From an uncultured SAR86 cluster bacterium (GTDB taxonomy: Bacteria > Pseudomonadota > Gammaproteobacteria > Magnimaribacterales > D2472), in assembly GCA_902563835.1 (NCBI GenBank), contig CACEZB010000006.1, positions 1,976 to 65,975 on the forward strand: a stretch of 64,000 nt of DNA. The letters run 5' to 3'. The position numbers and the translations under genes are program-made. The notes under the pieces are model-generated. The model had not been told where the DNA came from and made no database searches. It was given only the letters and a program-made list of their open reading frames with translations. Position 1 is the stretch's first letter; each line of letters opens with the position of its first letter. Positions 33,732 to 46,341 of this stretch are shown piece by piece.

Positions 33732-33807
33732 TGGTGGGTCGCACAGGATTCGAACCTGTGACCAATTGGTTAAAAGCCAACTGCTCTACCAGCTGAGCTA
33801 GCGACCC
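33732..33807 (-). tRNA. tRNA-Lys (anticodon UUU), CCA encoded
   Basis: The minus strand reads GGGTCGC-TA-GCTC-AGCTGGTA-GAGC-A-GTTGG-CTTTTAA-CCAAT-TGGTC-ACAGG-TTCGAAT-CCTGT-GCGACCC-ACCA. This folds into a perfect 76-nt cloverleaf with anticodon TTT. It lies immediately downstream of cpoB, as lysT does in E. coli. Confidence 0.95.
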
Positions 33808-33834: not shown

Positions 33835-34485
33835 TTATTCCATATTTTTCAATAACTGCAAGGCTAAGGAAGAAGCGGTATTATTTGGATACTCTCTTAC
33901 AACAAAATTATATTTATCCTTAGCCTTATTAATATCATTTGTTTTTAAATAAATATCGCCAATTTTTTTATGGGCAAGAGGCACTCTATAGTGGTTTGGA
34001 TAAAGGCTGATTAGTTCCATAAAGAAATCTTTTGATTGATCTAATTCATTATTCATTAAACTAATTTCTCCAAGCCAAAAATATGACAATGGTTTTTTTT
34101 CTTCATCGTTAAAGCTATCAACAAAATAATTAAATAATACAAATGCCTTTTCTAAGTCTTGATTTTCTAACGCATCGATAGCTGCTTTATATACTTGGTC
34201 AATGCTTTTAGGATCTTCTATTCCTTTGAACCTTACATCAGTATTTGTTGCTAAATCTTCAATATTTTCAGAGCTCTCTTCATCAGAATTTATAGATTCA
34301 TTTATAAGTTTTTCAATTAAATAGTCCTGGGATTCGACTTTATTTCTTAATTCAGCTATCTCTAATTCTAGTTCTTGAATTTTAAGAAATAAGATGTCTG
34401 TTTTGACATCTTCGTTATCATTTGCAATTAAAGAATTATGAAAAAATATGAATAAAAATATAAATAAACAAAACTTATTATTCAT
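33835..34485 (-). CDS. cpoB: Cell division coordinator CpoB (YbgF)
   Basis: 216 aa. Signal peptide, coiled-coil segment (LKIQELELEIAELRNKVES) and C-terminal TPR repeats. Last gene of the tol-pal cluster. Confidence 0.8.
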   Translation of the reverse strand: MNNKFCLFIFLFIFFHNSLIANDNEDVKTDILFLKIQELELEIAELRNKVESQDYLIEKLINESINSDEESSENIEDLATNTDVRFKGIEDPKSIDQVYKAAIDALENQDLEKAFVLFNYFVDSFNDEEKKPLSYFWLGEISLMNNELDQSKDFFMELISLYPNHYRVPLAHKKIGDIYLKTNDINKAKDKYNFVVREYPNNTASSLALQLLKNME

Positions 34486-34488
34486 TTA

Positions 34489-34983
34489 TTAGTTTATTTC
34501 TACCCTTCTATTTTTTGCATAACTGGATTCATCCTGACCCAATACAGCTGGTTTTTCTTCACCATAACTCTTAACTGTTATTCTACTCTTGTTAATTCCA
34601 TTTAAAACAAGATAGTCACTAACTGTTTCTGCTCTTCTTTGACCTAAAGCTAAGTTATATTCTCTTGTCCCTCTTTCATCGGCGTGACCAGATAGTGTAA
34701 TTGAAATCGAATCATTTTCATCTAGCGCATTAACTGCACTTTTAAGAATTTGTATTGATTTGCTAGTTAGATTAGATTTATCAAATTCAAAGTAAATTGT
34801 TGCATTTGCAAAAACAGCCCTGCTATCATAATTAATAAAGCTTTCACTAGCTGCCGATGAGGTTGCTTTAACTGTTTTTACCTTACCTGATGAAACTTGT
34901 TCTTGAGTAACATTCATAGTCGAACAAGAAGATAAGAAAATTACTAAAATTAAAAAATTAAATTTATTCTTTAAAAAATACAT
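34489..34983 (-). CDS. pal: Peptidoglycan-associated lipoprotein Pal
   Basis: 164 aa. Lipobox FLSSC and an OmpA-like domain (YFEFDKSNL...GHADERGTREYNLALGQRRAETV...). Confidence 0.94.
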   Translation of the reverse strand: MYFLKNKFNFLILVIFLSSCSTMNVTQEQVSSGKVKTVKATSSAASESFINYDSRAVFANATIYFEFDKSNLTSKSIQILKSAVNALDENDSISITLSGHADERGTREYNLALGQRRAETVSDYLVLNGINKSRITVKSYGEEKPAVLGQDESSYAKNRRVEIN

Positions 34984-34999
34984 ATCCGCTCCTATTAAA

Positions 35000-36259
35000 T
35001 TATCTTAAAAATCCTGACCAGACAGGCTCTCTTACCGCACCTTCTTTTGCAGGTAACCTAAATTTTGCTCCGCTTAAAGTTACTCCAGAAAGTAATCCCA
35101 TGCCATTATCTTTAATAGCATAAACTATAACATTTCCATTAGGTGAAATGCTAGGCGATTCATCCATTTGAGATTCTGTGAGCGGTCTTACAAAATTTTC
35201 ATCAAAGTATTTTAGAGCAATCTGAAACTTAGTATTTTCTCTATGCACAAAAATAATGCCTTGGTTATTAGGCAAATATGAGCCCTTGGCATTGTAATTA
35301 CCTTCAAAAGTTAATCTTTTTGGCCTAGCATTGAACCTTCTCAAATTTATCTCATATAACTGTGGTGCTCCAGATCTACCAGATGTAAACATTATTTTTG
35401 AACCCTTTGGAGACCATGTTGATTCAGTATCAATCCCATAATGATTAGTTAGTCTAGTTAAATTCTTATTTTTTAAATTCAAAATATATATTTCTGCATT
35501 GCCATCTTGATACATCGTTATAGATAAAAATTTACCATCTGGAGACCATGATGGCGCGCTTATTTGAAATTTATTTTCAATTACGACCTCTCTTTCTCCT
35601 GTTGCAATATCTTGAATAAAAACCTTAGCTATACCAGTTTCAAAAGAAACATATGCGACCTTCTTTGAATCTGGCGACCAAGCTGGTGAAATAATTGGTT
35701 CCGGGCTTTCAAGTAATACTTGTTCGTTTTTTCCATCTGCATCAGCAATAACAAGATTAAAGTTCTTATTTTCAGTTACATATAAAATTTTTGTTGATGC
35801 GATTCCTTTTATACCAGTTATTTCTTCATATATACCATCACTTATATAATGTGCTAATTGTCTATCCTTATTTGGAATCCCAAACACAGTTGAAGTCCTA
35901 ATCTTAGACCCCTTCTTGATATCATAAACTTGGTATTCTACTGAAGTATTAAATTTATCACTATTGGATATACTTCCAAGAATTAAATAATCAATATCTA
36001 AAATCCTAAAATCATTAAAAATAATTTCTACTTCTTCCTGCGGTTGAGATAATAATTTTTTGTTATTGAAAACTTTGAATTCGCCTGTTCTTTTAAGATT
36101 ATTTGTTACTATTTGATTAATTGTATTTGATATTGAAGTATCACCATTAAATGGTATTACTGCAACTTTATATGGATCTTCTGTCCCCTGGGTAATCTCT
36201 AATACCAGCTCTGATAATAAAATATTTGAAAAAATTAATAATATTAGTATCTTTTTCAT
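35000..36259 (-). CDS. tolB: Tol-Pal system beta-propeller protein TolB
   Basis: 419 aa. Signal peptide and repeated PxWSPDG propeller motifs (PAWSPDSKK, PSWSPDGKF, STWSPKGSK). Confidence 0.95.
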   Translation of the reverse strand: MKKILILLIFSNILLSELVLEITQGTEDPYKVAVIPFNGDTSISNTINQIVTNNLKRTGEFKVFNNKKLLSQPQEEVEIIFNDFRILDIDYLILGSISNSDKFNTSVEYQVYDIKKGSKIRTSTVFGIPNKDRQLAHYISDGIYEEITGIKGIASTKILYVTENKNFNLVIADADGKNEQVLLESPEPIISPAWSPDSKKVAYVSFETGIAKVFIQDIATGEREVVIENKFQISAPSWSPDGKFLSITMYQDGNAEIYILNLKNKNLTRLTNHYGIDTESTWSPKGSKIMFTSGRSGAPQLYEINLRRFNARPKRLTFEGNYNAKGSYLPNNQGIIFVHRENTKFQIALKYFDENFVRPLTESQMDESPSISPNGNVIVYAIKDNGMGLLSGVTLSGAKFRLPAKEGAVREPVWSGFLR

Positions 36260-36882
36260 GATGGATTAAATGTTATTACTATATTTCTAAAGTTAGATTG
36301 ATAAATATTTGTTGGAATTCTATTAAAAAAATTAAATGTTTCAATTCTTTCTACTGCCATTAATGCAGAATTATCAAACCTTATATTTCCACTACTTTTA
36401 ATTAAATTTGAATTTACGACCCTTCCATTTTTATTTATTGTCAGTCTTATATCGCATATAAGACCATTTTGGATATTCATAGGTTTCCGCCATGCTGATT
36501 GCAGTGATTGAATAATTAGTGAACTAAATAGCTCCACTTGATTTTGCTCTGAAGTTTGACTATTTAAAATTTCCTCTTCTAATAACTCTTCTACGCTTAT
36601 CGAGGTTATTAGAGAATCGAATGATATGGTATTCTTGACCTCTACATTTTGAAATTTATTCTCTTCAACTTCGCTTGCTTTAATAACTTTTTTCTGAGGT
36701 GGGGATGATTGTATTTTTTTCTGAACTTCTTCTTGAAAAATTAAATTAACATTTATTGGCTTGCTTAATACAGACCTTTGATTACTTTCGTAATAAAAAA
36801 ACCCAAGTGAATACAAAATTATGGAAGCATGAATCATAAAAGATACAAATGAGGCTTCAAGATAAACTTTATTAACTTTCAT
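36256..36882 (-). CDS. tolA: TolA, minimal form
   Basis: About 208 aa counted from ATG 36880-36882; the track uses TTG at 36897. It has an N-terminal TM, a short linker and a TonB_C/TolA-III-like C-terminal domain. It sits between tolR and tolB. Confidence 0.7.
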   Translation of the reverse strand: MKVNKVYLEASFVSFMIHASIILYSLGFFYYESNQRSVLSKPINVNLIFQEEVQKKIQSSPPQKKVIKASEVEENKFQNVEVKNTISFDSLITSISVEELLEEEILNSQTSEQNQVELFSSLIIQSLQSAWRKPMNIQNGLICDIRLTINKNGRVVNSNLIKSSGNIRFDNSALMAVERIETFNFFNRIPTNIYQSNFRNIVITFNPS

Positions 36883-37294
36883 AACCGGAAGTAACAATAC
36901 CTATCTTAGTAATCCCTACACTTTGAACTGAAGCCATTGCTTTTGCTACATAATCAAATGAAACATCTTTGTCACTCTGAAAAACAACTTCGATTTCAGG
37001 ATTAGCATCGAAGATTACCCTAGACTTTCTTTTTAATTCTTCAAGATCTATAGAAAGTGACTCATCGCCAACATTGATAAAATAATTTCCTGTTTTATCA
37101 ATAGAAATTACAAGTGGCTCATTTTGAACACTCATTTTTGTAGTATCAGTTTGAGGTAAATTAACTTCAATCCCCTGAATTAATAATGGGGATAAGACCA
37201 TAAATATAATTAGCAAGACAAGCATGACATCTATGTATGGCACAACATTGATCTCAGCTTTTAAATTCTTTTTTTTAGCTAGTCTATAGATCAT
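36872..37294 (-). CDS. tolR: Tol-Pal system protein TolR (ExbD family)
   Basis: 140 aa. INVVPYIDVMLVLLIIFMV motif with the conserved Asp in the TM segment. Confidence 0.92.
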   Translation of the reverse strand: MIYRLAKKKNLKAEINVVPYIDVMLVLLIIFMVLSPLLIQGIEVNLPQTDTTKMSVQNEPLVISIDKTGNYFINVGDESLSIDLEELKRKSRVIFDANPEIEVVFQSDKDVSFDYVAKAMASVQSVGITKIGIVTSGYES

Positions 37295-37962
37295 TATTTT
37301 TTTATAGACTCTTTGTAAAAAATGCTAGCAAGCTCCTCTGCGAATATTAATGTACTTTGACTGATTGTTTCCGATTCAGAAGTAAATTTATTAAACGCAA
37401 CTACTGCAGGTATTGCTGCAAATAATCCCATTCCAGTAGCAATTAGCGCTTCAGATATCCCAGGAGCGACTGCATTTATAGTTGCTTGTGTAGCATCAGA
37501 AAGACCTTGGAATGAAGTCATGATTCCCCATACTGTTCCAAGCAAACCAACATACGGGCTTACAGATCCTACATTAGCTAAGAAAGGTAGATGTTTATTC
37601 ATTTCTTCTTCATCAGAGGCTATTGAAACTCTCATTGACCTATTGATGCTTTCCAGATCAAATTCTGAAATGTCTTTGTCAGAGTCTATGTTTTTAAATT
37701 CTTCAAATGAATGTTTAAATAAATTCATTGCTCCATATAAAGATTCGCTTTTTGAAATTTCTTTATAAAGATTATTTAAATCCTTTCCACTCCAGAATTT
37801 TTTAAGAAACTCATTATTTATATTTTTTATTCTTCTAAAAAAATTATATCGTTCTACAATTACTATCCAAGAAAGAACAGAAGCAATAAATAAAAGAAAC
37901 ATCACAATTTTTACAACCATTCCTGCTTCTAAAAAGAGGTTTAATACTGAAATATCGTCCAT
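37294..37962 (-). CDS. tolQ: Tol-Pal system protein TolQ (MotA/ExbB family)
   Basis: 222 aa with 3 TM segments. Conserved LANVGSVSPYVGLLGTVWGIM and PGISEALIATGMGLFAAIPAV blocks. Confidence 0.94.
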   Translation of the reverse strand: MDDISVLNLFLEAGMVVKIVMFLLFIASVLSWIVIVERYNFFRRIKNINNEFLKKFWSGKDLNNLYKEISKSESLYGAMNLFKHSFEEFKNIDSDKDISEFDLESINRSMRVSIASDEEEMNKHLPFLANVGSVSPYVGLLGTVWGIMTSFQGLSDATQATINAVAPGISEALIATGMGLFAAIPAVVAFNKFTSESETISQSTLIFAEELASIFYKESIKK

Positions 37963-37971
37963 AAATTTTTC

Positions 37972-38382
37972 CTATTTAAAAATTAATAATAAATCATCCG
38001 GAAACTTTTGTGGTTTTTTTGTTATCAAATTTATAAAACAAACCTCAACCAAACCTTTTGCGCACTCATTATTATTATTTAAATTTTTTACTGACTGAGA
38101 GAATATCATTCTTGCATCAGATTTTTTTTCTACTGTAGATTGGACAATTATTTCATCTCCTAGTTCAGCGGGAGCAAGATATTCTATATTTACCTCTTTA
38201 ACAATAAATGCAGTATTTGATTTAATAAATTTCTTTTGAAAGAGATTATTATTAGACAAAAAGTTAGATCTAGCTCTTTCAAAAAATTTTAAATAATTTG
38301 CATAATAAACAAAGCCTTGAAAATCAGTATCTTCTACATATATTGTAAATTTTAAATCTTCACACTTGATAGTTTTGCTCAT
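37972..38382 (-). CDS. ybgC: Tol-Pal-associated acyl-CoA thioesterase YbgC (4HBT family)
   Basis: YVEDTDFQGFVYYANYLKFFERAR is the hot-dog thioesterase catalytic motif. The start is probably ATG 38380-38382 (MSKTIKCEDLKF...) rather than the track start at 38412. Either start overlaps the upstream ORF. Confidence 0.88.
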   Translation of the reverse strand: MSKTIKCEDLKFTIYVEDTDFQGFVYYANYLKFFERARSNFLSNNNLFQKKFIKSNTAFIVKEVNIEYLAPAELGDEIIVQSTVEKKSDARMIFSQSVKNLNNNNECAKGLVEVCFINLITKKPQKFPDDLLLIFK

Positions 38383-38785
38383 GCAGTTCGATATCCTCTT
38401 GAAATAATTCAAGTATTATTTGAATAAAATCTGGCCATAATAAGTCAACCGTTACTAAATTATTTTTAATTTCTTTATTAATAGAATTAGCAAGAACTCT
38501 AACTTTTATAGGTCTATTATTAAATTTATATACAAGAGCAGGTTTTAATCCCTGCCCAGAAGATGATGCAAGAACTTGATCCCACCAGTCTGGTCTTGGT
38601 TCTGCTCCAGCGCCATAGGCTTTGCACTCAATACACCAAGTTCCAAGCATTAAATCTGGTAATTCTTTCGTTCTCGTTTGTTCTAAAATTCTCTTAACAG
38701 GATTTTGAAGGTTAAGATCTTCGATAAGTGCATTTGCAATCTGCCTTTCAAAAGCTGCGCCCTTATTTCTAGAGTTAATAGACAA
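38360..38785 (-). CDS. Small PD-(D/E)xK nuclease-fold protein, Hjc-like (candidate Holliday-junction resolvase)
   Basis: 141 aa. NKGAAFERQIANAL (E13), LPDLML (D44) and CIECK (E53, K55) reproduce the order and approximate spacing of the archaeal Hjc catalytic residues. It sits in the yebC / ybgC slot normally held by ruvCAB. Its 3' end overlaps ybgC. Confidence 0.5.
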   Translation of the reverse strand: MSINSRNKGAAFERQIANALIEDLNLQNPVKRILEQTRTKELPDLMLGTWCIECKAYGAGAEPRPDWWDQVLASSSGQGLKPALVYKFNNRPIKVRVLANSINKEIKNNLVTVDLLWPDFIQIILELFQEDIELHEQNYQV

Positions 38786-38787
38786 AA

Positions 38788-39525
38788 TTAATCTTTTACC
38801 TCAAAATTTTGTGGGAATTCAGCATTTGTATGAACTTCTTGAACATCATCAAGGTCATCCATAAATTCCATAATATTTAAAACTTTTTCTGACATTTCTT
38901 GGTCAAGATTTACTAAAGTTTCAGCCCTTAAAGTTAACTGTGCATTTATATAAGCAACTTCATTATTTTTAAAAAAATCTATAATATTATTAAAATCATT
39001 TGCTTCTGTAGTCACTTCAAAAAAATCATCTTCTTGTGTGAAATCTATTGCACCAGATTCAATAACTAATTCCATTAATTTTTCTTCAGAAAAGCCTTTA
39101 TCAATATGAATAATTCCAAGTTTTTTAAATAAATAAGCTACGGAACCATCTGTTCCAAGATTTCCACCAAATTTAGAAAATGCATGCCTTACATCTGAAA
39201 CTGTTCTATTTCTATTATCGGTCATTGTTTCAACTAAAATTGCTACTCCTCCAGGACCATATCCTTCAAAAATTATTTCTTCTAATGAGCCTGTTTCTCC
39301 TGTACCAGAACCTTTTTCAATTGCACGTTTAATTGTGTCTTTTGGCATATTAGCTGAATTAGCTTTTTCTAAAGCTAATCTTAGCCTTGGATTGTCATTT
39401 GGATCAGGGCCATCTTTGGCTGCAACTGTAATTTCTCTAATTACTTTAGTCCAAACCTTACCTCTTGAAGCATCTTGTCTTGCTTTTCTATGTTTTATGT
39501 TTGCCCATTTTGAATGACCAGCCAT
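38788..39525 (-). CDS. yebC: YebC/PmpR family protein
   Basis: 245 aa with the MAGHSKWANIKHRKARQDASRGKVWTK N-terminal hallmark. Confidence 0.95.
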   Translation of the reverse strand: MAGHSKWANIKHRKARQDASRGKVWTKVIREITVAAKDGPDPNDNPRLRLALEKANSANMPKDTIKRAIEKGSGTGETGSLEEIIFEGYGPGGVAILVETMTDNRNRTVSDVRHAFSKFGGNLGTDGSVAYLFKKLGIIHIDKGFSEEKLMELVIESGAIDFTQEDDFFEVTTEANDFNNIIDFFKNNEVAYINAQLTLRAETLVNLDQEMSEKVLNIMEFMDDLDDVQEVHTNAEFPQNFEVKD

Positions 39526-39528
39526 AAA

Positions 39529-41295
39529 TTATTCTTCCTTGTGAGTACTGATGATTTTTAATTCTTCAAGCTGTTCTTTTTCTACTTTACTTGGAGCATC
39601 TGTAAGTAAACATGCTGCACTTTGTGTTTTAGGAAAGGCTATTACATCCCTTATATTTGTTGTATTTGTTACTAACATTACTATCCTATCTAAACCAAAT
39701 GCGATACCTCCATGAGGGGGACATCCTGAAGAAAGGGCTTTTAATAAAAAGCCAAATTTTTTATCAGCTTCTTCTTTAGAAATATTTAAAATACTAAATA
39801 TACTTTGCTGCATATCTTTATCAAAAATCCTAAGCGAACCTCCTCCGATCTCATATCCATTCAGAACAACGTCATAAGCATGAGCAATAGATTTTTTTGG
39901 ATCTTCTAATAATTCTTTTTTAGAACATTGAGGTAAAGTAAATGGATGATGGAGTGGAGTTAAGTCTCCTTCAGCATTTTCCTCAAACATTGGAAAATTA
40001 ACAATCCAACAAGGAGCCCATTTTGAACTATAAAGATTAAGATCTTCTCCTAACTTCTTTATTAAACTGCTCATTGATAAATTGACTACTGATTGAGGTC
40101 CAGCGCCAAAGAAAATTAGATCATCAGTTTTAACTTTTAAAACATCTACAATATTTGAGATTGTCTCACTTTTTAGAAACTTGAGAATAGGCGACTGAAT
40201 ACCATTCTCTAAATCTTTAACATCATTTATTTTTATGTACGCCAGGCCTTTAGCTCCAAGTTTTGAAACAAATTTTGTGTAATCATCGATCTGTCCTCTT
40301 GATAAGGAGTTTCCATTTGGAACCCTCATTGCAACTACTCTAGAATTTTGGTCTTTAGCAGGCTCAGCAAATACTTTAAATTCTTCATCTTTTACTAAAT
40401 CAGATATTTCAGTAAGTTTAAGAGGTATTCTTAAATCAGGCTTATCACAACCATACTCTTCCATAGCATCATGCCAATTCAATACTTCAAATTTATCTAA
40501 GCTTTCATCTGTGAATTCTCTGATAATACTTCTTATCATTTTTTCACTTATCTGCATAATCTCTTTTTGCTCTACAAAAGATGCTTCGATATCTATTTGA
40601 GTAAACTCAGGTTGCCTGTCTGCTCTTAAGTCTTCATCTCTAAAACACCTAGCAATTTGATAATACTTGTTCAAACCTCCAATCATTAGTAATTGTTTAA
40701 ATAATTGGGGAGATTGAGGTAAAGCATAAAAACTTCCCGGCTGAACTCTGCTTGGAAGAATGTAGTCTCTTGCACCCTCAGGAGTCGCCTTGGTTAGTAT
40801 AGGTGTCTCAATTTCATGGAAATCATTCTTATCTAGATAATTTCTTATGAGAGAAGTAATCTTTGATCTGGTAATTATTCTTTCATTCATCTCTGGCCTT
40901 CTAAGGTCAAGCACTCTATTTTTTAATCTTACATCTTCATTAACTTCTTGGTATTCATCAATTGGAAATACTGGTGTGTTCGCCTTGCTAAGAATATCTA
41001 TATTTTTTACTTCTATTTCAATTTCGCCCGTATGCATATTTTTATTAATAGTTCCTTCCAACCTATTTCGTACAACGCCATTAATCTGAACTACATATTC
41101 ATTTCTTATTGATTCAGCTAATTTAAAAGATTCCTTGTTATCTGGATTGACGACTGCCTGACATATTCCTTTGATATCTCTTACATCTAAAAAGATAACT
41201 CCACCATGATCTCTTCTTCTGTGCACCCAACCACAGATCGTTACTTCTTCCTTTAGATTTGAAGATGTTATTTCACCACAATAATGAGACTTCAT
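39529..41295 (-). CDS. aspS: Aspartate--tRNA ligase
   Basis: 588 aa. OB-fold N-terminus (CGWVHRRRDHGGVIFLDVRD), class II motifs (FRDEDLRADRQPEFTQID, GGGSLRI, GIAFGLDR) and the bacterial insertion domain. Confidence 0.97.
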   Translation of the reverse strand: MKSHYCGEITSSNLKEEVTICGWVHRRRDHGGVIFLDVRDIKGICQAVVNPDNKESFKLAESIRNEYVVQINGVVRNRLEGTINKNMHTGEIEIEVKNIDILSKANTPVFPIDEYQEVNEDVRLKNRVLDLRRPEMNERIITRSKITSLIRNYLDKNDFHEIETPILTKATPEGARDYILPSRVQPGSFYALPQSPQLFKQLLMIGGLNKYYQIARCFRDEDLRADRQPEFTQIDIEASFVEQKEIMQISEKMIRSIIREFTDESLDKFEVLNWHDAMEEYGCDKPDLRIPLKLTEISDLVKDEEFKVFAEPAKDQNSRVVAMRVPNGNSLSRGQIDDYTKFVSKLGAKGLAYIKINDVKDLENGIQSPILKFLKSETISNIVDVLKVKTDDLIFFGAGPQSVVNLSMSSLIKKLGEDLNLYSSKWAPCWIVNFPMFEENAEGDLTPLHHPFTLPQCSKKELLEDPKKSIAHAYDVVLNGYEIGGGSLRIFDKDMQQSIFSILNISKEEADKKFGFLLKALSSGCPPHGGIAFGLDRIVMLVTNTTNIRDVIAFPKTQSAACLLTDAPSKVEKEQLEELKIISTHKEE

Positions 41296-44216: not shown

Positions 44217-45224
44217 TTATTTAGATTTACTAGTTATATATGAAGATCTTATTTCTTTCATAAGTTTTTCCCTAATTTTTGCATTTTCTTTAAGGAAAAG
44301 ACTGGCCTTGACCTTGCCCTGGCCAATACTTTCTCCATCAAGCTTATAAAAAGCACCTGATTTCTCAATCAACCCAAGCTTATGACCGAAATCTAACATC
44401 TCACCTTCTTGATTGATTCCTAACCCATACATAATCTGGAATTCTGCTTGTTTAAATGGCGGAGATACTTTATTTTTTACAACCTTAACTCTGGTTTCAT
44501 TACCCATAACCTCATCACCTTCTTTTACAGCACCAATTCTTCTGATATCTAATCGCACAGATGAATAAAATTTAAGTGCATTTCCACCAGTTGTTGTCTC
44601 TGGACTTCCAAACATTACACCTATTTTCATTCTAATTTGATTAATAAATACAACCGTTGCACCAGACCTTTGAATATTTCCTGTGATCTTTCTAAGCGCT
44701 TGTGACATCAGTCTTGCTTGAAGTCCAACATGATGATCTCCCATTTCACCCTCAATTTCAGCTCTAGGAACAAGTGCTGCAACAGAATCTATAATCACAA
44801 GGTCTACACTATTCGATTTTACAAGCATATCTGCAACTTCAAGGGCCTGCTCCCCTGTATCAGGTTGAGATAACAATAATTCATCTACATTTACACCTAA
44901 TTTTTCTGCATATTGAGGATCAAGTGCATGCTCTGCATCAATAAATGCACAAGTACCGCCTTCTTTTTGGCATTGAGCAATAATTTGAAGGGTTAATGTT
45001 GTTTTACCAGATGATTCTGGTCCATATATTTCTGTAACTCTTCCTTTTGGTATACCTCCTATACCCAAAGCAATATCAAGACCTAAAGAACCTGTTGAAA
45101 TGGAAGGAATATCAAGATTTTCTCTATCCCCCATTCTCATAACAGTTCCCTTACCGAAATGATTGTCTATATCATTTAAAGTATCTTTTAATGATTTTTT
45201 AGTCGTATCTTTTGATTTAGTCAT
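44217..45224 (-). CDS. recA: Recombinase RecA
   Basis: 335 aa. Walker [11 protein letters not shown], Walker [13 protein letters not shown], and L1/L2 regions ([33 protein letters not shown]). AGGAG SD at 45231-45235. Confidence 0.98.
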
Positions 45225-45235
45225 AAGAATCTCCT

Positions 45236-45255
45236 TACTGTATATATATACAGTA
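45236..45255. promoter_or_regulatory. LexA operator (SOS box) in front of recA
   Basis: TACTGTATATATATACAGTA is a perfect 20-nt palindrome identical to the gammaproteobacterial consensus TACTG(TA)5CAGTA. It lies directly upstream of the recA Shine-Dalgarno. Confidence 0.9.
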
Positions 45256-45336
45256 TAAACTATATTTTTAAATATTTAAATAGTTTTATGTAAATTTAAA
45301 ATTTAGTAAGCTAAAATTCAAACTTCTCGACTAATT

Positions 45337-45654
45337 ATGACATACGTAGTAACAGAATCTTGCATTAAATGTAAATATACCGATTGCGTTGAAGTATGCC
45401 CAGTAGATTGTTTTTATGAGGGTCCTGAGTTTTTAGTAATAGATCCTGATGAATGTATAGATTGCGGCTTATGTGTACCAGAGTGTCCTATTGAAGCAAT
45501 TTATCCAGATGATGAATTGCCTAAGGATCAAATTGAATTTATAGAAATTAACCTAAAACTTTCTGAGGTTTATGAAAATATTACTGAGTCTAAAGAACCC
45601 CTGCCTGAGGCTGAAAAATATAAAAATATTAAAAATAAGAAAGAATTCTTATAA
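45337..45654 (+). CDS. fdxA: 7Fe ferredoxin (3Fe-4S/4Fe-4S, Azotobacter FdxA type)
   Basis: 105 aa. [29 protein letters not shown] and [12 protein letters not shown] cluster motifs. Confidence 0.93.
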
Positions 45655-46341
45655 AAAATAATTAATGCCGGTAGCAAAAATTAGTCCACCAAAAAAAACC
45701 AATATCAATTTTCCAAACTTTTCATAAGCCTTATTGATTAATCTTGGCATTAAAATTAATGCACCCAACATACCAATACCAAAAGGTAGTAAAACCTCAA
45801 AATTTAAGCTTGAAACACTTCCAATTATTAAGGGGTATGCTCCTACTGATAATAAAAATGCGCTACCTGAGATTCCTGGAAAAAGTAAAAAACTGCATGC
45901 AATAAAACCAAATAAGACTATCAATGGAAGGATAGGCTCTTGATACCCATGAATATGAAAACTACTTAAATGTAAACCAATTATAATTGCTAAAAAGAAA
46001 TTGATATAAAAACTTTTACCTTTATCAATATCCTCTTTCATATATGTGCTTATTACTAAAAATGTTCCATACCCAATCATCAATAAAGCAATAAAAAGAT
46101 TGAATGAGTTCGTGAAGTTTTTATATAAAAAATCTATTAATGAAGAGAATGCAAATACACTTAGTATCATTCCAAATAAAAGAGGTAGTATTAAATCTAA
46201 GTTCTTAAATCTTCTTAGAAAATCAATTAATTTTTCATAAACACCAAACATCAATGCAACTGTTGCGCCTGATATTCCTGGCAATAATTCAGACAATCCA
46301 ATAAATATACCTGCTATAAAATATCTAATTTTTTCTTTCAT
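45649..46341 (-). CDS. DUF368 family polytopic membrane protein (family recently linked to undecaprenyl-phosphate recycling)
   Basis: 230 aa. The two-fold repeated signature [17 protein letters not shown] / [17 protein letters not shown] is typical of DUF368. Confidence 0.75.

Follow-up and report, generated by a model that had tools for sequence, protein, structure and literature searches.

The locus described here raises the question of what takes the place of ruvC, ruvA and ruvB, the genes for processing Holliday junctions, in bacteria of the SAR86 cluster. It lies in a stretch of 64,000 nucleotides from an uncultured SAR86 cluster bacterium (assembly GCA_902563835.1, contig CACEZB010000006.1, positions 1,976 to 65,975 of the forward strand), and this whole stretch is referred to as the window. 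Between yebC and ybgC, where other Gammaproteobacteria carry ruvC-ruvA-ruvB, the window contains a single open reading frame (ORF) for a small nuclease of the phage family PF24608. It is fairly likely that this nuclease is a domesticated phage resolvase that has replaced RuvABC and that probably works with RecG.

38360 to 38785, minus strand: PF24608 nuclease gene, proposed replacement of ruvC-ruvA-ruvB; ORF of 141 amino acids with a TTG start, characterized with Pfam, PHROG 244, AlphaFold2 (AF2) and Foldseek

The ruvCAB slot in SAR86 and other Gammaproteobacteria

The nuclease gene is part of a conserved gene block that extends from aspS to a tRNA gene:

39529 to 41295, minus strand: aspS, upstream boundary of the aspS-yebC-[slot]-ybgC-tol block (Pfam; synteny)
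38788 to 39525, minus strand: yebC (TACO1/YebC family), directly upstream of the nuclease gene (Pfam; 50% identity to E. coli YebC)
37972 to 38412, minus strand: ybgC-like 4HBT thioesterase gene, the first of the tol-pal cluster, overlapping the 3' end of the nuclease gene (Pfam 4HBT_2)
33835 to 37962, minus strand: tolQ-tolR-tolA-tolB-pal-cpoB, downstream part of the conserved block (Pfam)
33732 to 33807: tRNA-Lys(ttt) (ARAGORN)

To survey the slot, one genome per GTDB species was scanned with the YebC of the window, and the 80 resulting loci were searched by tblastn. The closest YebC relative is that of SAR86 cluster bacterium AG-313-N18 (74% identity), followed by further SAR86 genomes. Five SAR86-type loci (L014, L016, L020, L025 and L081; GC content 0.33-0.35) have the order aspS-yebC-[PF24608 gene] and run on into ybgC and/or tolQ wherever the contig reaches. 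About 70 loci from other Gammaproteobacteria have aspS-yebC-ruvC-ruvA-ruvB-(ybgC)-tolQ instead; these ruvCAB-bearing outgroups include Pseudomonadales, Pseudohongiellaceae, Marinobacter, Cellvibrio, Coxiellaceae and Shewanella. A tblastn search with E. coli RuvC found no match in the window or in the SAR86 loci, yet found ruvC in the roughly 70 outgroup loci. Metagenomic SAR86 contigs whose nucleases are 69% and 56% identical to that of the window carry the gene in the same slot, and the order aspS-yebC-[PF24608 gene] holds for all SAR86 contigs examined (nuclease identity 49-100%). The exact protein of the window is found on 174 contigs, including a contig of 1,194,471 bp from the European Nucleotide Archive (ENA) with identical gene order. 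The nuclease therefore sits in the resolvase slot of a group from which the markers for RuvA, RuvB and RuvC are absent, with the caveat that YqgF/RuvX is present. An earlier proposal for this DNA, made in a preliminary description, was that RuvC had been displaced between yebC and ybgC by an archaeal or phage-type gene. The comparison of SAR86 with outgroup synteny supports displacement by a phage-type gene: every SAR86 locus carries the nuclease gene at this junction, and the roughly 70 outgroups carry ruvC-ruvA-ruvB. One locus fits neither pattern. In a Methylococcaceae metagenome-assembled genome (L048:8070-9926; GC 0.34), yebC is directly followed by ybgC-tolQ, and the slot contains no ruvCAB and no PF24608 gene. 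It is another low-GC lineage in which ruvCAB left the yebC-ybgC position and was either moved or lost.

The arrangement of the slot is compact. The nuclease ORF starts 2 nt past the stop of yebC (38788) and overlaps ybgC by 23 nt if ybgC starts at the ATG at 38382, the choice of the gene caller, or by 53 nt if it starts at the TTG at 38412. In the contigs L002-L006, ybgC was called as a protein of 136 amino acids with the 23-nt overlap. A GAGGT lies 12 nt 5' of the TTG of the nuclease gene, within the 3' end of yebC. There is no space for a promoter or terminator of its own and the GAGGT is inside yebC, so the nuclease gene is read within the yebC-ybgC-tol-pal transcription unit. A promoter scan around the locus gave nothing above expectation (30 found against 39.7 expected from shuffled sequence). 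GC content is about 0.30 across the window, and the composition scan showed no island signature at the nuclease gene. Reading of the sequence together with Pfam and ARAGORN upheld the earlier account of this locus, namely the ORF at 38360-38785, its 2-nt distance from yebC, its 23-53 nt overlap with ybgC and the flanking genes aspS, yebC, ybgC, tolQRAB, pal, cpoB and tRNA-Lys. Its judgement that the gene is embedded in the operon and is no obvious recent insertion agrees with the uniform GC and with the same slot in divergent SAR86 loci.

Two side observations concern the reading of this region. A terminator-like hairpin (7 pairs, 5 of them G-C) followed by a T-rich run lies at 38536-38557 on the minus strand, inside the nuclease ORF and on its coding strand, upstream of ybgC-tol-pal; there are 8 terminator-like sites in the region against 3.0±1.8 from shuffles, and this one is probably due to chance. 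In L001, a contig of 354 kb (ENA ERZ28548065, chicken_3), aspS, proS, tolB, surE and other genes are split, and the same genes are intact in L002-L006 of the same species. The splits look like frameshift errors of long-read assembly and not pseudogenes.

Across eight SAR86 lineages, the nuclease evolves under constraint similar to that of yebC. Synonymous sites are saturated between the available lineages, at about 0.7-0.8, so the proportions of nonsynonymous (pN) and synonymous (pS) differences are compared with those of neighbouring genes in place of a ratio of substitution rates (dN/dS). Mean pN is 0.30 for the nuclease, 0.27 for yebC, 0.39 for ybgC and 0.36 for tolQ, and pS is about 0.76 for the nuclease. 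In a neighbor-joining tree the SAR86 copies form one clade nested among phage-type sequences, with a bootstrap of 0.51, or 0.74 when the nearest relative is included. The shared slot, the yebC-like constraint and the SAR86 clade together identify the nuclease gene as an old, vertically inherited core gene of SAR86. Two trivial explanations were rejected. A chance ORF is ruled out by hundreds of homologues, a Pfam score above the gathering threshold and the constraint on the gene; a recent insertion or island is ruled out by the native composition and by the same slot at 49-56% protein identity.

Family membership and conservation of the active site

The nuclease belongs to PF24608 (PDDEXK_15, "phage putative PDDEXK endonuclease"), which it matches over residues 4-109 with 36.7 bits against a gathering threshold of 27. 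The same model matches 49 of 49 diverse aligned relatives, and the precomputed annotation of all database hits is PF24608. An exhaustive search of 1.84 billion cluster representatives returned 244 clusters at E<=0.001. The protein also matches PHROG 244, which is named "RusA-like Holliday junction resolvase" (E 1.4e-12). NCBIfam gave no match, Pfam gave none to RuvC (PF02075), and a direct sequence search against the chains of the Protein Data Bank (PDB) gave nothing meaningful (albumin, E ~1).

The motifs proposed for this protein from its sequence, NKGAAFER (E13), LPDL (D44) and IECK (E53 and K55), are present, and their codons were read directly (E53 at 38629-38627, K55 at 38623-38621). Features of the coding sequence that bear on function are as follows:

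38747 to 38770, minus strand: N-terminal helix motif R6-x-K8-G9-x3-E13-R14, with the predicted catalytic Glu and DNA-binding Arg, aligning with E9 and R10 of Pyrococcus furiosus (Pfu) Hjc (alignment to 4tkd and 1gef)
38690 to 38692, minus strand: R32 codon, aligning with Pfu Hjc R25, which is essential by mutagenesis (R32 in 102 of 105 representatives; 1gef alignment)
38654 to 38656, minus strand: D44 codon, predicted metal-binding Asp of the PD motif at the start of strand beta2 (aligns with Hjc D33/D42)
38621 to 38629, minus strand: E53-C54-K55, the (D/E)xK motif in strand beta3 (aligns with the Hjc ExK motif)
38360 to 38401, minus strand: acidic C-terminal tail, about residues 129-141, EDIELHEQNYQV (gap counts; SAR86 alignment; helix 129-138 in the model)

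Conservation was counted in an alignment of 105 full-length representatives, which mostly share 30-45% identity with the query. The catalytic residues are nearly invariant: E13 is found in 101/105, D44 in 105/105, E53 in 104/106 and K55 in 106/106. All four are invariant in alignment A1, from which the structural model was built, and intact in all eight SAR86 lineages compared. The earlier idea that these four positions form an active site could have failed here if homologues varied at them; they are instead conserved or almost so among about 105 representatives down to about 30% identity. The first helix is likewise conserved (R6 in 100/105, K8 in 99/105, G9 in 102/105 and R14 in 88/105), and L34, Q36, Y57, W67, W68, Q70 and P82 are strongly conserved in the PF24608 alignment.

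The acidic tail is common to the SAR86 copies, with a consensus of roughly E-D-I-E-x-H-E/D, is helical in the model and is absent from most phage homologues. It may, speculatively, be a contact with a host partner gained after domestication.

A predicted fold close to that of Hjc

The AF2 model of the nuclease, built on alignment A1, is of high confidence (predicted local distance difference test 91.8; predicted template modeling score 0.86). It comprises a helix at residues 5-23, strands at 45-47 and 50-57, a helix at 65-76 and a strand at 81-88, and has the alpha-beta-beta-beta-alpha-beta core of PD-(D/E)xK nucleases. Helix 1 of the model carries E13 and strand 3 carries E53 and K55, with D44 placed where strand 2 starts. 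A Foldseek search of the PDB placed archaeal Hjc, the Holliday-junction resolvase of archaea, in all of the top 16 matches (best E 1.4e-4; probability 0.98-1.00; template modeling (TM) score 0.43-0.60), from Archaeoglobus fulgidus (2wcw/2wiw), Sulfolobus tokodaii (2eo0) and P. furiosus (1gef). The next true nuclease after Hjc is Cas4 SSO0001 (E 0.03), and the fold neighbours also include a restriction endonuclease. Among viral structures the TM score rises to 0.82, and some of the matching proteins bear the names Holliday junction resolvase, Hjc-DNA complex and RecU. A place outside the nuclease folds would have refuted the earlier proposal; the model is confident, and its best PDB matches are archaeal Hjc.

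Sequence comparison with Hjc gives a weaker signal. The Hjc profile PF01870 does not match the protein of the window even at E<=10, and the Pfam Hjc model weakly matches 2 of 49 relatives (best E 0.0016). When the PF24608-family profile was compared with PDB sequences, the best matches were Hjc 4tkd (E 0.29) and 1gef (E 0.64), which are not significant alone and agree with the fold search. The Hjc fold is therefore seen in the AF2 model, and the Hjc sequence profile does not recognize the protein. Seven residues are essential in P. furiosus Hjc: E9, R10, R25, D33, E46, K48 and K81 (PMC10956419). In a statistically weak alignment to 1gef these pair with E13, R14, R32, D44, E53, K55 and K87 of the nuclease (E9-E13, R10-R14, R25-R32, D33-D44, E46-E53, K48-K55 and K81-K87), and all seven fall on family-conserved residues. 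The numbering E12/D42/E55/K57 earlier given for the Pyrococcus enzyme is that of Sulfolobus solfataricus Hjc and needs correction; the P. furiosus residues are E9/D33/E46/K48 (PMC10956419). As modelled, the nuclease has an Hjc-like fold and active site, and by sequence it is a PF24608 member and not a member of the Hjc family.

Phage relatives and origin

Homologues outside SAR86 are at most 48% identical and lie on contigs of about 20-55 kb. A search of INPHARED identified homologues in cultured marine phages, the Roseobacter phages CRP-406, -701, -811, -821 and -822 and Phage C72C1. The neighbouring phage genes belong to recombination and replication: a Sak annealase, a second PD-(D/E)xK gene and a small terminase in one set; SSB and a primase/helicase in another; an integrase, a YqaJ exonuclease, Sak and a primase-helicase in a third. 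In tailed phages, junction-resolving or debranching nucleases are usually encoded in such modules. Judged from sequence, the ancestry of the SAR86 nuclease is phage-type (PF24608) and not that of the archaeal Hjc family.

Phage copies of the PF24608 gene often occur together with another, distinct PD-(D/E)xK gene (L010:10001-10817; L011:6004-7644). This is PDDEXK_14 in L010, and in Roseobacter phage CRP-406 a gene labelled 'PD-(D/E)XK nuclease-like' stands two genes downstream. The labels 'RusA-like Holliday junction resolvase' and 'Holliday junction resolvase' are attached to the family in PHROG 244 and in the JGI annotations P0280, P0282 and P0297, and no experimental basis for them was found. 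Homology to RusA, as the PHROG label implies, was rejected: no RusA is among the 50 best PDB fold matches, and the active site is E/D/ExK. The label expresses a guess at function and assigns no structure.

Loss of RuvABC and retention of RecA and RecG

The window and the in-clade loci, which represent a few percent (~5%) of the genome, contain no ruvA, ruvB, ruvC or recG. Evidence for the whole genome comes from HIMB1674, the first isolate of SAR86, whose genome has been closed (Ramfelt et al. 2024; PMC11582366). HIMB1674 is without RuvA_N (PF01330), RuvA_C (PF07499), RuvB_C (PF05491) and RuvC (PF02075), and RadA, RecN, MutS domain I and the MutL C-terminal domain are also absent (PMC11582366 Table S1). 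Of the 28 absent markers, 27 are likewise systematically absent from 732 environmental SAR86 genomes, those for RuvA, RuvB and RuvC included (PMC11582366). The same table lists YqgF/RuvX (PF03652), RecF, RecR and the TRCF domain of Mfd as present (PMC11582366). Discovery of an intact ruvCAB elsewhere in the genome would have reduced the displacement to a relocation; at the level of HIMB1674 and the 732 genomes, the markers for these genes are missing.

RecG is outside the marker set of PMC11582366 and was sought directly by scanning metagenome contigs for the motif-II peptide DEQHRFGVHQR in SAR86-type codons. Of the 72 loci found (L094-L165), about 26 encode one RecG clade of 694 amino acids, with all helicase motifs intact and 57-99% mutual identity. 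The longer loci of this clade have tetranucleotide correlations of 0.87-0.94 with known SAR86 DNA, and shorter loci have lower values; for reference, SAR86 loci compared with each other give 0.80-0.93 and outgroup controls 0.41-0.79. One exact sequence of the clade is named "ATP-dependent DNA helicase RecG [SAR86 cluster bacterium]" by NCBI. The RecG loci and the yebC loci have no flanking genes in common. Whether RuvAB or RecG remains as a motor for branch migration had been left as a question. For SAR86 as a group the answer is divided, in that RuvAB is gone and a RecG clade has been traced to SAR86. The scan also returned several further low-GC (0.24-0.30) RecG groups, which are only 33-38% identical to E. 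coli RecG and comprise some loci from the human gut and other non-marine sources. Stop codons around motif II interrupt the recG frame of L132, through either assembly error or pseudogene formation.

RecA is encoded in the window itself, and recA is kept near the nuclease locus in SAR86 contigs:

44217 to 45224, minus strand: recA, intact (Pfam RecA, 473 bits)

The surroundings of recA deserve separate mention. At 44217-46341 recA and a DUF3470 ferredoxin gene occupy opposite strands with 112 bp between them, a thiolase gene comes next after recA, and a VCA0040-like gene stands between the ferredoxin gene and pcm-surE. L009 keeps cinA between fdx and recA. The order in Pseudomonas is presumably recX-recA-cinA...mutS-fdxA-rpoS-nlpD-pcm-surE, and we would accordingly expect mutS, recX, rpoS and nlpD near the recA of the window. 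This suggests a second clean deletion, here of genes for repair and regulation, in keeping with the absence of MutS and MutL (PMC11582366 Table S1).

A proposed role in junction resolution

It is reasonable to propose that the gene product is a small Mg2+-dependent PD-(D/E)xK endonuclease with an Hjc-like fold, drawn from the marine-phage recombination and replication family PF24608 and acquired once by the ancestor of SAR86 (order Magnimaribacterales). The gene would be co-transcribed, and is probably translationally coupled, with yebC and ybgC-tol-pal. RecA would make the joint molecules that the resolvase must process. By analogy with Hjc, RecU and T7 endonuclease I, a homodimer may bind the four-way junctions and joint molecules made by RecA, as well as reversed forks, and may introduce paired nicks, with E13, D44 and E53 predicted to bind metal, K55 to serve in catalysis, and R14, R32 and K87 to contact DNA. 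No dedicated RuvAB motor would take part; branch migration, where needed, would presumably come from RecG. Precedents for such a pathway are available. In E. coli, mutants in ruvA, ruvB and ruvC are rescued by prophage RusA, which needs RecG for this, and Methanobacterium Hjc restores repair in E. coli without RuvC (PMC10956419). Aquifex aeolicus has no RuvAB, has RecG (PMC1193525), and has an active RusA (PMC10956419).

A wider proposal is put forward tentatively, as a little short of an even bet. PF24608 may be an unrecognized family of Holliday-junction resolvases widespread in marine phages, and the whole SAR86 order may depend on a minimal RuvAB-free pathway from RecA through RecG to a domesticated phage resolvase, adopted after RadA, RecN and MutSL were dropped. 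SAR86 would then be a natural, globally abundant counterpart of the rus suppressor strains of the laboratory, and the acidic tail an adaptation to a partner in the host, for instance RecG, SSB or the clamp.

Several points weigh against a role as the SAR86 resolvase. Similarity of sequence to Hjc is below significance (E 0.29-0.64), and the TM scores are moderate (0.43-0.60). PD-(D/E)xK folds serve many functions, including restriction, repair, Cas4 and RNA processing. A literature search found no biochemical or genetic test of any PF24608 member. Bootstrap support for a single acquisition is moderate at best. Junction-cleaving activity has been reported for YqgF/RuvX in some bacteria, and this protein could be the resolvase instead. 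SAR86 keeps YqgF/RuvX (PF03652; PMC11582366). Finally, the absence of ruvABC and the presence of recG are established for SAR86 generally and not for the genome of the window.

Alternative roles of the nuclease

An active, structure-selective nuclease could have a cellular job other than the resolution of Holliday junctions, such as the trimming of reversed or stalled forks, flaps, D-loops or further branched intermediates of repair. Removal of junctions would then fall to YqgF/RuvX, to RecG-driven reversal or to topoisomerase-mediated dissolution. Junction nucleases of phages are usually promiscuous toward branched DNA (PMC3864405). SAR86 keeps YqgF/RuvX, RecF, RecR and Mfd, and has shed many repair genes, among them RadA, RecN, MutS and MutL (PMC11582366), which indicates that its repair network has been rewired. 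Yet the nearest structures in the PDB are those of dedicated junction resolvases, every residue essential in Hjc has a conserved counterpart, and the gene lies exactly in the ruvCAB slot. This role also overlaps with that of a domesticated resolvase, since one enzyme could do both. It is considered unlikely, and is the least improbable of the alternatives.

A second alternative is that the phage nuclease was domesticated for a purpose outside recombination, with its adjacency to yebC incidental; the purpose might be defence against phages or restriction, the exclusion of foreign DNA or a toxin-like activity. PF24608 is mainly phage-borne, PD-(D/E)xK is the classic fold of restriction enzymes, and one relative weakly matches Mrr_cat (E 0.09). 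A search of PADLOC-DB with the SAR86 protein and two phage homologues, however, gave 0 families at E<=1. The nuclease gene has no methylase, immunity or sensor gene as partner and is wedged between yebC (2-nt gap) and ybgC (overlap). It is fixed at one locus in every SAR86 lineage examined, with native base composition and core-gene-like constraint, unlike patchy defence islands. A defence role is therefore improbable. Very improbable is a role in RNA processing or in YebC-linked translation or ribosome function, in which linkage to yebC and not loss of ruvC would explain the position: the coupling to yebC is tight (2-nt gap), some PD-(D/E)xK proteins are RNases and the C-terminal half has weak Ribosomal_L25p-like matches (E 0.19; E 0.48), but these matches are far below threshold, the phage homologues adjoin DNA recombination and replication genes and not yebC, and the fold neighbours are DNA junction enzymes.

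Comparison with known systems

RuvAB with a RuvC or RecU resolvase is counted in the near-universal core of bacterial recombination, and SAR86 accounts for several percent of the bacterioplankton at the ocean surface. Among 117 species surveyed, only two RecA-positive genomes were without RuvAB (PMC1193525). Literature searches found no paper on what fills the RuvABC gap of SAR86; the loss is noted only in a supplementary table, as missing completeness markers, and the replacement nuclease is unmentioned in the text and supplements of that study (PMC11582366). One practical consequence is that ruv genes are unsuitable as completeness markers for the SAR86 order. If the nuclease is a resolvase, a functionally uncharacterized Pfam family of many marine phages would gain a function, and SAR86 would provide a clean, natural, in-situ case of non-orthologous displacement in which a three-gene machine gave way to one phage protein of 141 amino acids. 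With a cultured isolate, it would also be a tractable system for the minimal junction-processing needs of free-living cells, with bearing on recombination and genome evolution in streamlined ocean bacteria.

Archaeal Hjc (PF01870; 1gef, 1hh1/4tkd, 2wcw and 2eo0) is of the same size range, about 120-140 amino acids, and has the same core fold, the same E...(P)D...ExK arrangement and the same KGxxxER helix as the SAR86 nuclease. The SAR86 nuclease differs in its own signature (R32-x-L-x-Q36, Y57, W67-W68-x-Q70 and P82) and its acidic tail, and it belongs to a bacterial and phage-borne family, whereas Hjc is archaeal. We know of no PCNA-type partner for it. T7 endonuclease I, lambda Rap and bIL67 RuvC are likewise found in phage recombination and replication modules near late genes and act alone on branched DNA. 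Their families are different from PF24608. T7 endonuclease I is also a PD-(D/E)xK enzyme, but its active site is composite and domain-swapped, and the fold search did not retrieve it.

RecU is a larger protein with a stalk region, works with RuvAB that its hosts have kept, and is rarely encoded next to ruvAB. As proposed for the SAR86 nuclease, it is a PD-(D/E)xK resolvase that replaced RuvC non-orthologously in a large bacterial clade, the Firmicutes and Mollicutes (PMC1193525). In contrast to that clade, SAR86 lost RuvAB too, and RecU is not among the top PDB fold matches of the SAR86 protein. The combination of RusA and RecG, as in E. coli rus suppressors and Aquifex aeolicus, is, as proposed for SAR86, a small, motor-independent resolvase of phage origin in place of RuvABC with RecG kept. 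The fold and active site of RusA are completely different (D70/D72/K76/D91, against E/D/ExK in the SAR86 nuclease). Unlike the RusA case, the SAR86 replacement is natural, is fixed across an abundant order and lies in the vacated ruvCAB slot, not on a prophage. Non-orthologous replacement of RuvC is thus already known from RecU, and loss of RuvAB with RecG and a phage-type resolvase is known from Aquifex. What is new in SAR86 is the uncharacterized PF24608 family, the clean in-situ swap of three genes for one, and the ecological scale of a whole order.

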